From sequence record PP216085: a stretch of DNA of 64,000 nucleotides; one strand, written 5' to 3'. Under the pieces are notes generated by a model. That model did not search any database. It was not told the origin of the DNA and saw nothing but the letters and a program-made list of their open reading frames with translations. The translations under genes were made by a program, and so were the position numbers. Position 1 is the first letter of the stretch. The number at the start of each line of letters is the position of its first letter. Shown piece by piece: positions 44,405 to 53,908 of this stretch. The DNA comes from Escherichia phage vB_EcoM_HZ_ZJUN4.

Positions 44405-44477
44405 TGGGAATTAGCCAAGTTGGTAAGGCACTGGATTTTGATTCCAGGATGCAAAGGTTCGAGTCCTTTATTCCCAG
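44405..44477 (+). tRNA. tRNA-Gln (anticodon UUG)
   Basis: Cloverleaf folded by hand: acceptor TGGGAAT/ATTCCCA, anticodon loop TTTTGAT, T-loop GGTTCGAGTCC. Confidence 0.8.
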
Positions 44478-44478
44478 C

Positions 44479-44565
44479 GCGAGAATGGTCAAATTGGTAA
44501 AGGCACAGCACTTAAAATGCTGCGGAATGATTTCCTTGTGGGTTCGAGTCCCACTTCTCGCACCA
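44479..44565 (+). tRNA. tRNA-Leu (anticodon UAA), type II, CCA encoded
   Basis: Acceptor GCGAGAA/TTCTCGC, anticodon loop CTTAAAA, long variable arm, GGTTCGAGTCC. Confidence 0.8.
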
Positions 44566-44570
44566 AATTT

Positions 44571-44644
<74 letters not shown>

Positions 44645-44654
44645 ATTTAATTTA

Positions 44655-44728
44655 CTCCGTGTAGCTCAGTTTGGTAGAGCGCCTGATTTGGGATCAGGAG
44701 GTCCAAGGTTCAAATCCTTGTATGGAGA
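44655..44728 (+). tRNA. tRNA-Pro (anticodon UGG), no encoded CCA
   Basis: Anticodon stem CCTGA/TCAGG, loop TTTGGGA; GGTTCAAATCC T-arm. Confidence 0.8.
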
Positions 44729-44730
44729 CT

Positions 44731-44820
44731 GGAGGCGTGGCAGAGTGGTTTAATGCACCGGTCTTGAAAACCGGCAGTCGCTCCGGCGACTCATAGGTTC
44801 AAATCCTATCGCCTCCGCCA
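44731..44820 (+). tRNA. tRNA-Ser (anticodon UGA), type II
   Basis: Acceptor GGAGGCG/CGCCTCC, anticodon stem CCGGT/ACCGG, loop CTTGAAA, long variable arm. Confidence 0.8.
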
Positions 44821-44825
44821 GTTTT

Positions 44826-44901
44826 GCTGATTTAGCTCAGTAGGTAGAGCAACTCACTTGTAATGAGAAGGTCGGCGGTTCGATTCCGTCAATCAGCACC
44901 A
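44826..44901 (+). tRNA. tRNA-Thr (anticodon UGU)
   Basis: Acceptor GCTGATT/AATCAGC, anticodon loop CTTGTAA, GGTTCGATTCC T-arm. Confidence 0.8.
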
Positions 44902-44902
44902 A

Positions 44903-44977
44903 GGCCCTGTAGCTGGAAGGTTCAAGCAAGCGACTCATAATCGCCAGATGGTGGTTCAATTCCACCCAGGGCCACCA
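44903..44977 (+). tRNA. tRNA with CAU anticodon (Ile by synteny with T4, reading AUA after modification; Met not excluded)
   Basis: Acceptor GGCCCTG/CAGGGCC, anticodon loop CTCATAA, GGTTCAATTCC T-arm. Confidence 0.7.
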
Positions 44978-44990
44978 AATTAAGAATTAA

Positions 44991-45077
44991 GGGGAGTTAT
45001 CCCGTAGAGGTAGCGGTGTGGACTGTAAATCCATTGTCATTGCGACTCGGGTGGTTCGACTCCATCACTCCCCACCA
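44991..45077 (+). tRNA. tRNA-Tyr-like (anticodon GUA), type II
   Basis: Acceptor GGGGAGT/ACTCCCC, anticodon stem GTGGA/TCCAT, loop CTGTAAA, long variable arm, T-arm GGTGG-TTCGACT-CCATC; D-arm pairing imperfect. Confidence 0.6.
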
Positions 45078-45081
45078 ATTT

Positions 45082-45156
45082 GGATGTGTAGCTCAATGGC
45101 AGAGCGATCGCCTGTTAAGCGATTGGTTATAGGTTCGAATCCTATCACGTCCGCCA
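45082..45156 (+). tRNA. tRNA-Asn (anticodon GUU)
   Basis: Acceptor GGATGTG/CACGTCC, D-stem GCTC/GAGC, anticodon stem ATCGC/GCGAT, loop CTGTTAA, GGTTCGAATCC T-arm. Confidence 0.7.
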
Positions 45157-45160
45157 AATC

Positions 45161-45236
45161 CGAGGCATAGCTCAGAAGGAAGAGCAAGGACCTTCTAAGT
45201 CCTAGGTCGTAGGTTCGATCCCTACTGCCTCGACCA
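45161..45236 (+). tRNA. tRNA-Arg (anticodon UCU)
   Basis: Acceptor CGAGGCA/TGCCTCG, D-stem GCTC/GAGC, anticodon stem AGGAC/GTCCT, loop CTTCTAA, GGTTCGATCCC T-arm. Confidence 0.8.
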
Positions 45237-51882: not shown

Positions 51883-52422
51883 ATGAGAACATTTTTAACT
51901 GGTCCTTATCTATCCCTGATGAATGCTTTTACACACCATTCTGATGCTAGAGTAGAAGAAATTTGTAAAAACGAATATATCCCGCCATTTGAAGACTTAC
52001 TTAAACAGTACTGCACACTTCGACTAGATGGTGGACGTCAATCCGGTAAATCAACTGCAATAACTAATTTTGCCGCTAATTGGTTATATGATGGTGGAAC
52101 AGTTATTGTTCTTTCTAATACTTCAGCTTACGCTAAAATTTCTGCGGGCCACATTAAAAAAGAATTTTCTCGTTATTCTAGCGATGATATTCGATTCCGC
52201 TTATTTACCGATTCTGTCCGTAGTTTTATCGGTAATAAAGGAAGCAAGTTCAGAGGTTTATCGCTTTCGCGGATTTTGTATATAATCGATGAGCCTGTTA
52301 AATCTCCTGATATGGATAAGATTTATAGTGTCCATATTGACACTGTACACTGCTGCTGTAATATTAAATGTTGTATTGGTGGTATTACTCGTCCACAGTT
52401 TTTCGTAATCGGAATGCAATGA
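51883..52422 (+). CDS. small P-loop NTPase with Cys-rich C-terminus
   Basis: 179 aa; Walker A GGRQSGKST, Walker B-like ILYIIDEP, tail HCCCNIKCC. Confidence 0.5.
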   Translation: MRTFLTGPYLSLMNAFTHHSDARVEEICKNEYIPPFEDLLKQYCTLRLDGGRQSGKSTAITNFAANWLYDGGTVIVLSNTSAYAKISAGHIKKEFSRYSSDDIRFRLFTDSVRSFIGNKGSKFRGLSLSRILYIIDEPVKSPDMDKIYSVHIDTVHCCCNIKCCIGGITRPQFFVIGMQ

Positions 52423-52748
52423 TGACAGACACTCAGCTTTTCGAATATCTTTATTTTTCGCCAAAAACTATTAAAAATAAATTGGTGAATCATTTTGAAA
52501 TTTTGGCAAATAACAACGTCTTGAGCGAATTTTATCCTAAGCAATACAAATTACAAAAAGGTGTATTCAAAGGATGCAGAGTTTTGTGCACTGCTCCTAA
52601 TGAAAGATTAATGAATAAAATTCCATATTTTACCATGGAATTTATTGATGGACCTTTTAAAGGACTAATCACCCAAAGTTTAATGGCATATGATTCTGAG
52701 CCATTTTTAATTAAAGAACAATCTTGGATAAATTTATTTTCTAATTGA
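52419..52748 (+). CDS. hypothetical protein
   Basis: ATGA overlap with upstream stop; starts [10 protein letters not shown] (track ORF 52368 has a spurious extension). Confidence 0.5.
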
Positions 52749-52755
52749 GGTTTAT

Positions 52756-53118
52756 ATGAAAGCATATCAAATTCTTGAAGGCACACATAAAGGTACTATT
52801 TATTTTGAAGACGGTATTCAAGCACGAATTATTGTTTCTAAAACCTTTAAAGAGGACTCTTTTGTAGACCCAGAAATTTTCTATGGTTTGCATGCCCGTG
52901 AAATTGAAATTGAAACACAACCTACAGTTAAAATCGAGGGTGGTCAACACCTGAACGTTAACGTTCTGCGTCGTGAAACTCTGGAAGATGCAGTTAAGCA
53001 TCCGGAAAAATATCCGCAACTGACCATCCGTGTATCCGGTTATGCAGTTCGCTTTAACTCTCTGACTCCGGAACAGCAGCGCGACGTTATCGCTCGTACC
53101 TTTACTGAGAGCCTATAA
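52756..53118 (+). CDS. autonomous glycyl radical cofactor (GrcA/YfiD-like)
   Basis: 120 aa; C-terminal [60 protein letters not shown] recognised as the glycyl-radical domain (RVSGY). Confidence 0.85.
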
Positions 53119-53878: not shown

Positions 53879-53908
53879 GTTTACTTTTCCTCTTGACTGT
53901 GGTATAAT
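53879..53908 (+). promoter_or_regulatory. T4-type early promoter
   Basis: GTTTAC, spacer, TGTGGTATAAT. Confidence 0.6.

Follow-up and report, generated by a model that had tools for sequence, protein, structure and literature searches.

The vs.6 locus

The gene described here lies at positions 52756..53118 on the + strand of a 64,000-nucleotide stretch of Escherichia phage vB_EcoM_HZ_ZJUN4 (PP216085), the whole of which is referred to as the window, and is an ortholog of T4 vs.6 (Y06I) coding for a GrcA-like autonomous glycyl radical cofactor. The open reading frame specifies 120 amino acids from an ATG start, the coordinates including the stop codon, and a Shine-Dalgarno sequence (GAGG; 52747..52750, + strand) can be read off the sequence 5 nt before the ATG. 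The phage is a T4-like member of the genus Tequatrovirus, and the 1.3 kb around vs.6 is 96-97% identical at the nucleotide level to phages Lutter, HP3, RB32 and RB33, with matches in 793 phage records.

Orthology with the T4 gene is evident in both sequence and position. The vs.6 product is identical at 118/120 amino acids to T4 Vs.6 (AAD42676.1; Y06I in UniProt), and it aligns with 1-120 of the 121 profile positions of phrog_1209 (E=5.4e-63). The ORFs of the window share with RB32, T4 and Lutter the gene order vs.8-vs.7-vs.6-vs.5-vs.4-vs.3-regB-vs.1-vs-tk.4, in which vs.6 is flanked by vs.7 and vs.5 within the early region extending from the denV/ip genes to regB. The ortholog is already known, and has been characterised biochemically as T4 Y06I. 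The gene is present in about 1,470-1,510 phage records, distributed across the Straboviridae and the T5-like phages. Their annotations are uneven: many phage records give "autonomous glycyl radical cofactor GrcA", the T4 reference record has "conserved hypothetical protein", PHROGs lists phrog_1209 as of unknown function, and further records name the gene as pyruvate formate-lyase or 2-ketobutyrate formate-lyase.

The gene is tightly packed among its neighbours. Immediately upstream is vs.7 (52419..52748, + strand), identified from the RB32/T4 annotation and by phrog_2049 (E=1.3e-53), which codes for a 109-amino-acid protein of unknown function and whose stop codon overlaps the Shine-Dalgarno sequence of vs.6; the TAA of vs.6 in turn overlaps the ATG of vs.5 (TAATG), and throughout vs.7, vs.6, vs.5, vs.4 and vs.3 the stops and starts either overlap or abut. 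A promoter-like site of the sigma-70/T4-early type (TTGACA-16-TAATAT; 52337..52365, + strand), scoring 10/12 in a consensus scan, is located within the 3′ end of vs.8, ~55 nt upstream of vs.7. The scan for promoters and terminators gave overall no enrichment over shuffled sequence, and the promoter evidence is restricted to this one site, which coincides with an annotated promoter at the same position in the relative Lutter (NC_054924.1). The next promoter-like site (53880-53908) precedes regB, at the end of the vs.7-vs.3 block. It is most likely that vs.6 is transcribed early, together with the other genes from vs.7 to vs.3, from a sigma-70-type promoter.

The vs.6 product and its probable function

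The vs.6 product is a small stand-alone protein with an N-terminal region of ~60 amino acids and a C-terminal radical domain, lacking a catalytic barrel, and it has every structural attribute of an autonomous glycyl radical cofactor. Pfam Gly_radical (PF01228) matches amino acids 60-101 with an E value of 2.2e-18 and 67.2 bits (cut-off 22.2), a domain match far beyond what would be expected by chance. Aligned with E. coli GrcA by BLASTP, the protein has 74/100 identities, and its amino acids 61-120 are 100% identical to GrcA 68-127. The predicted radical glycine, Gly95, is encoded by the GGT codon at 53038..53040 (+ strand) within the motif RVSGYAV, and is aligned with GrcA G102 and PflB G734. 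The sequence-only reading, which had recognised a stand-alone GrcA/YfiD-like cofactor related to T4 Y06I with a glycyl-radical domain in its C-terminal 60 residues, is borne out by these matches and by the orthology with vs.6, and the radical Gly of RVSGY, on which that reading hinged, is unsubstituted on exact alignment. In the record of the T4-like phage RB55 a 13-nt deletion in vs.6 takes out the Gly95 codon, so that either vs.6 is dispensable in ordinary culture or the record is in error.

Searches against structures and family models place the protein more precisely. With phmmer against all PDB sequences, the vs.6 product matches GrcA (the NMR structure 6OWR) with E=4.6e-42 and residues 697-759 of PflB with E=4.8e-26, and a total of 35 PFL-type glycyl radical enzymes are matched at E<=1; within the domain, identity is 100% to GrcA and about 80% to PflB. 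The pyruvate formate-lyase / formate C-acetyltransferase model TIGR01255 scores 89.2 bits against a cut-off of 994.2 and is matched at profile positions 680-744 only. The vs.6 product was considered as a pyruvate formate-lyase and rejected, as it has no ~750-amino-acid ten-stranded barrel with the catalytic Cys418/Cys419; judged on its sequence, the label 'pyruvate formate-lyase' is an over-annotation. The NCBIfam GrcA equivalog model TIGR04365 aligns with amino acids 20-120 and gives 154.6 bits, short of the cut-off of 170 because the N-terminus of vs.6 has diverged (E. coli GrcA reaches 233.9), and the models for the short variants GrcA2 and GrcA3 (NF008341 and NF038360) give 93.6 and 106.4 bits, below their cut-offs of 145 and 158. 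The protein would thus be best filed as Vs.6/Y06I, a GrcA-like phage lineage that would act as GrcA does, and not as a strict GrcA equivalog.

The diverged N-terminal half is alignable to GrcA from about amino acid 20-22 onwards (AR.IVSK, ED..V, RE.E.E..P.V), at low identity. In a set of 15 sequences from phages and hosts, K29 never varies and Q5, R48 and P56 hardly do, and among T4-like phages the dN/dS ratio of this half is 0.08-0.20, indicating purifying selection, which fits a retained docking role. A single-sequence AF2 model of the vs.6 product has a mean pLDDT of 35 and is uninformative for the N-terminal half.

PMC8683613 (citing Wagner et al. 2001, PMID 11444864) describes YfiD and T4 Y06I as ~14-kDa "spare part" proteins that acquire a glycyl radical from PFL-AE and whose complex with O2-cleaved pyruvate formate-lyase (PFL) restores its activity in vitro; no spare parts other than these two have been validated (PMC8683613). 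GrcA residues 61-127 duplicate PFL 693-759, comprising a beta-strand, the Gly loop and a helix at the C-terminus, and residues 1-60 are disordered in solution, yet are required for measurable binding of cPFL and for fourfold better radical installation (PMC8683613). The earlier suggestion that the phage protein replaces the oxygen-cleaved C-terminus of PFL is in keeping with the reported restoration of O2-cleaved PFL by Y06I (PMC8683613), whereas upkeep of the phage anaerobic ribonucleotide reductase, which was proposed alongside it, is not supported as a direct mechanism, the protein and the radical domain of NrdD having no similarity that could be detected.

As the ortholog of T4 vs.6, the gene very probably codes for a phage-encoded autonomous glycyl radical cofactor that rescues host PFL, probably early in infection. 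The host PFL-activating enzyme PflA, a radical SAM enzyme, would take hydrogen from Gly95, the C-terminal domain (strand, Gly loop and helix) would insert into host PFL that has been cleaved at Gly734 by oxygen, and PFL would again make acetyl-CoA and formate from pyruvate and CoA. By analogy with GrcA 1-60, the diverged N-terminal half probably aids activation and the docking to cleaved PFL. Because T4-type phages shut down the expression of host genes, an infected cell would be unable to induce its own grcA; the phage copy could then sustain fermentative ATP and acetyl-CoA when a low-oxygen infection meets oxygen, and may also sustain formate, the reductant of the phage class III ribonucleotide reductase (RNR). 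Early expression, a benefit in vivo, the formate link and the N-terminal role are what we infer beyond the reported biochemistry, and the searched literature yielded no in vivo phenotype of a vs.6 mutant.

Other roles for the radical domain have to be weighed against rescue of PFL. Vs.6 could in principle stand in for the radical domain of the phage NrdD, another glycyl radical enzyme that oxygen cleaves: a Gly_radical-type domain is present in both proteins, NrdD co-occurs with a vs.6-like gene in T4-like and T5-like phages, and a role in nucleotide metabolism was suggested by Nolan et al. 2006 on the basis of the glycyl-radical domain (PMC1524935). However, among all PDB sequences phmmer recovers no class III RNR at E<=1, though T4 NrdD structures exist, and BLASTP against RB32 NrdD gives nothing significant, the best E value being 2.7 at an unrelated position that is not the radical site. 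The NrdD C-terminus (...TIRRTCGYLGNPNERGFNLGK..., with RRTCGYLG) is unlike the Vs.6 domain, and a spare-part mechanism needs near residue-for-residue replacement of strand, loop and helix, for which the identities to GrcA and PflB given above point to PFL. The PDB search, the BLASTP comparison with RB32 NrdD and the difference in motif lead us to reject a direct NrdD spare part, and we give the idea almost no credence. Indirect help to NrdD through PFL-made formate is plausible, as the characterised class III RNRs take formate as their reductant (PMC4493059). NrdD and a grcA-like gene are found together in both the T4-like and the T5-like phages, though this amounts to no more than co-occurrence.

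It is also conceivable that Vs.6 serves other host PFL-type enzymes, such as the 2-ketobutyrate formate-lyase TdcE, alongside or instead of PflB. E. coli genomes contain a median of 3 DNA matches to vs.6 per genome, corresponding to grcA and presumably pflB and tdcE, the 2-ketobutyrate formate-lyase label is attached to the gene in several phage records, and spare parts for further glycyl radical enzymes have been considered conceivable (PMC8683613). Rescue has nonetheless been demonstrated only of PflB, for YfiD and Y06I (PMC8683613), and PflB is the abundant fermentative enzyme; a role with TdcE or its like is unlikely, if well short of negligible. Far less probable is that Vs.6 is a decoy that titrates PflA or occupies PFL and so turns off or diverts the fermentation of the host. 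The phage protein has a strongly diverged N-terminal half, the part on which GrcA relies for binding cleaved PFL and for being activated efficiently, and the score of Vs.6 is under the GrcA equivalog cut-off, both of which a decoy might explain. But T4 Y06I is reported to restore PFL activity (PMC8683613), and the catalytic half, in the window phage and nine other genomes, has no non-synonymous change from the functional E. coli GrcA, as would be predicted of a functional replacement and not of an inhibitor.

An E. coli-like tract in the 3′ half of vs.6

Less expected than the function is that the working half of vs.6 is almost identical to E. coli grcA DNA. The 3′ half is 97.8% identical at the nucleotide level to grcA, which was matched in all 5,426 complete E. 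coli genomes. The boundary is abrupt. Upstream of ...GTTAAAAT(T/C), vs.6 and E. coli grcA share 51% nucleotide identity (37% at third positions), and between GA(A/G)GGTGGTCAACAC... and the final sense codon the figure is 98.3% (95% at third positions). The change point in identity lies at about 52939 (maximum chi-square 103, reached in 0/2000 permutations). The 5′ part of the gene (52756..52933, + strand) is accordingly the portion diverged from grcA, and the following tract (52934..53108, + strand), which codes for the structured glycyl-radical domain (amino acids 60-118), has 3 differences from E. coli grcA, all of them synonymous. Base composition changes along with identity: GC climbs across vs.6 from about 0.30 to 0.52, and GC3 goes from 0.20 in the 5′ part to 0.42 in the tract, the latter being the value of E. 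coli grcA and higher than in any of 142 sixty-codon windows drawn from the window's 26 long ORFs (maximum 0.40).

The tract is flanked on both sides by phage-type sequence. When the whole 64-kb window was compared with E. coli genomes by megablast, the vs.6 tract was the sole chromosomal match, the other match being a phage tRNA-Tyr gene that is present on some plasmids. The alignment shows no similarity between the vs.6 region and E. coli grcA 3′ of the stop codon, and the last codons and TAA (53109..53118, + strand) are of phage type: vs.6 ends GAG AGY CTA TAA, as in Mosigvirus, Slopekvirus and Pseudotevenvirus, and the E. coli gene ends GAA AGC CTG TAA. This phage-type end implies that a grcA-like gene already present in the phage had an interior segment overwritten.

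The same structure is found in related phages. Among ten phages (four Tequatrovirus and six Mosigvirus) the tract has 0-6 differences from E. coli, mostly private to individual phages, and the left junction is common to 10/10; there are no differences at all in T4 strain 147, RB32, Lutter and Mosigvirus RPN187. No non-synonymous differences from E. coli GrcA were found in amino acids 61-120 of the window phage and nine Tequatrovirus/Mosigvirus genomes, and the T4 reference has R73H inside the GrcA-identical domain. About 499 phage records contain the tract at >=95% identity (that is, at least 95%) with the same ends.

An explanation of the near-identity by contamination or assembly error, or by extreme purifying selection on an anciently acquired gene, can be given very little weight. 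The protein sequence of the domain is almost invariant over hosts and phages, and some excess of nucleotide conservation is expected from this. Selection at the protein level cannot, however, account for 95% identity at third positions or for a dS to E. coli of 0.00-0.07, and the same domain is far more diverged elsewhere, both among the Klebsiella and Enterobacter phages (dS 0.69 to >1.6) and between E. coli and Citrobacter or Salmonella (0.41-1.07); the GC3 of the tract, above every sixty-codon window of the phage, argues in the same direction. Contamination or an assembly artefact is ruled out, since about 499 independent phage records, T4 included, have these junctions in common.

The direction of transfer can be read from the host gene and from phylogeny. 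E. coli grcA is not mosaic, with GC3 values of 0.42 and 0.41 in its two halves and similar synonymous divergence of both halves from Citrobacter, Salmonella, Klebsiella and Enterobacter, and movement from phage to host is ruled out by this uniformity. A neighbour-joining tree built on the final 180 nt places the sequences of Tequatrovirus and Mosigvirus within Escherichia, at 99.5% bootstrap support. The non-mosaic host gene and the nesting together indicate that the donor was Escherichia.

Comparison of the two phage genera shows that the tract is young. Divergence between Tequatrovirus and Mosigvirus is 29.7% in vs.7, 11.3% in the 5′ part of vs.6, 1.8% in the tract, 17% in the last 18 nt of vs.6, 28.4% in vs.5 and 31% in vs.4, and between T4 and RPN187 there are 0/165 differences in the tract versus 20/177 in the 5′ part (Fisher p=1.3e-6). 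Synonymous divergence follows the same pattern. Within the tract, dS is 0.00-0.07 between the phages and E. coli, against 0.047 between E. coli and Escherichia sp. MOD1-EC7003, 0.41 between E. coli and Citrobacter and 1.07 between E. coli and Salmonella, while the 5′ part of vs.6 has a dS of 0.36-0.45 between Tequatrovirus and Mosigvirus; in the Klebsiella and Enterobacter T4-like phages the upper values for this domain are saturated. The low divergence of the tract relative to its flanks and to the dS of the 5′ part therefore places it as much younger than the split between Tequatrovirus and Mosigvirus. Sequence comparison thus indicates that 52934-53108 replaced the matching part of an older phage grcA-like gene, that the donor was E. 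coli grcA, and that the replacement was recent relative to the split of the genera; the Escherichia origin and the recent age appear close to certain.

How the tract came to be in both genera could be explained in either of two ways: by separate or repeated entry into each genus, or by one entry followed by phage-phage recombination across genera at conserved edges. T4-type phages contain hmC and degrade host DNA. We tentatively suggest, as a possibility with somewhat less than even support, that recent replacement by E. coli chromosomal grcA DNA, which may have been repeated or independent, keeps the tract in step with the host, in effect a gene conversion from host to phage.

Phages of other genera have a different history at this locus. 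The 3′ halves of the genes of Klebsiella, Enterobacter, Cronobacter, Aeromonas, RB49-like and T5-like phages were compared with grcA of 80 Enterobacterales/Pasteurellaceae genomes (K. pneumoniae grcA not being among the 80), and no host-identical tract was found, the best identities being 75-88.5%; their differences from host grcA are spread across third positions and leave no shorter stretch identical. Old, synonymously saturated versions of the gene are carried by Jiaodavirus, Slopekvirus, Pseudotevenvirus, Krischvirus, the phages of Aeromonas and Cronobacter and the T5-like phages. Klebsiella phages have the Klebsiella/Salmonella-type LLDAVEH and E. coli phages have LEDAVKH, but in EBPL (Enterobacter host) and Phi1 (E. 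coli host) the residues do not match those of their hosts, and host tracking of residues in these other genera is suggestive only.

Comparison with known systems

The vs.6 gene itself is nothing new, T4 Y06I/Vs.6 being among the two experimentally validated spare parts. Its conservation in ~1,500 genomes from two families of enterobacterial phages that have a class III RNR too suggests that oxygen-perturbed fermentative infection, as in the gut, is a selective regime for them. The E. coli-identical tract offers a clean and datable case of host DNA entering T4-type genomes, and one that is experimentally tractable. If the gene-conversion reading is true, it would mean that a phage metabolic gene evolves in concert with the homolog of its host.

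T4 Vs.6 (Y06I, AAD42676.1) resembles the window protein in its 120-amino-acid length, its neighbours and its E. coli-identical tract, and differs in having P where the window protein has T54 and H in place of R73, together with a few synonymous changes. E. coli GrcA (YfiD) is likewise a stand-alone ~14-kDa protein with an identical C-terminal domain, ~98% DNA identity, the same radical Gly and the same RVSGYAV activase recognition motif; its N-terminal half is only weakly similar (51% nucleotide identity), that of the phage being 7 amino acids shorter, and grcA is situated at the host locus ung-grcA-eamB, whereas vs.6 lies behind a phage early-type promoter. The C-terminal radical domain of PflB (697-759) aligns end to end with the vs.6 product, including one 22-residue segment that is identical, but PflB is a 759-amino-acid enzyme and the phage protein is without its catalytic barrel. 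The short spare-part variants GrcA2 and GrcA3 (78-80 amino acids) have the radical domain in common with the vs.6 product, which, unlike them, keeps an N-terminal extension of ~60 amino acids as GrcA does.

A description of the vs.6 mosaic was not found in the searched literature, which left out key older T4 papers, and it may still have been reported. The nearest known precedent is psbA of the cyanomyoviruses, in which patchy host-like GC has been attributed to intragenic recombination (PMC3900582). It is likewise a host-derived gene of T4-like phages with patches of host composition, although it differs in gene, host and pathway, and the patch in vs.6 is a single tract of ~175 nt that is essentially the same as the present-day host allele.

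Variation and annotation of vs.6 in T4-like phages

In the T4 reference genome (AF158101.6) vs.6 lies at positions 2058-2420 of locus L101, and its codon 73 is CAT rather than CGT, placing a His within a tract that is otherwise identical to E. coli; T4 strain 147 and every other phage examined have Arg at this residue. The gene is still labelled 'conserved hypothetical protein' in this record, and the corresponding PHROGs entry (phrog_1209) is listed as 'unknown function', the 2001 biochemistry notwithstanding. The vs.6 region of the T4-like phage RB55 (KM607002.1; locus L100, 640-900) lacks a 13-nt stretch (CGGTTATGCAGTT) whose counterpart in the window is at ~53036-53048, such that the radical-glycine codon is lost and the reading frame is shifted, and the record contains no vs.6 CDS. 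Either vs.6 is dispensable under laboratory culture, or the RB55 record contains a sequence error.

Neighboring genes and similarity to E. coli sequences

Upstream of vs.6, vs.8 (window 51883-52422) codes for a 179-residue protein of unknown function (phrog_1488), and a weak match (E=6e-6) to phrog_2, a large terminase family, within its ATPase region suggests a P-loop NTPase-like fold. A cluster of ten tRNA genes (Gln, Leu, Gly, Pro, Ser, Thr, Met/CAU, Tyr, Asn and Arg) occupies window positions 44405-45236. When the window was compared with E. coli genomes by megablast, matches were found only at the grcA-like tract of vs.6 and at tRNA-Tyr (44991-45077), the latter having 80-90% identity to 257 E. 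coli plasmid records.

Host-type residues and genomic placement in other phages

Vs.6 proteins vary at residues ~76-81, where those of E. coli phages have the E. coli variant, LEDAVKH. Klebsiella-infecting T4-like phages from two different genera have RETLLDAVEH, the variant of Klebsiella, Raoultella and Salmonella GrcA; the site was compared in the Klebsiella/Enterobacter phages KP1, KP15 and phiEap-3 (loci L005, L006 and L007). These Klebsiella-type residues may represent older host-derived replacements. Two phages, EBPL, which infects Enterobacter, and Phi1, which infects E. coli, are mismatched with their own hosts at this site.

The grcA-like genes of the T5-like phages (Demerecviridae; e.g. 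BF23, locus L010, 1020-1388) and Aeromonas phage 44RR2.8t (locus L012, 1015-1383) are surrounded by tRNA genes and are not flanked by vs.7 and vs.5; separate phage lineages have therefore placed or acquired the gene independently.
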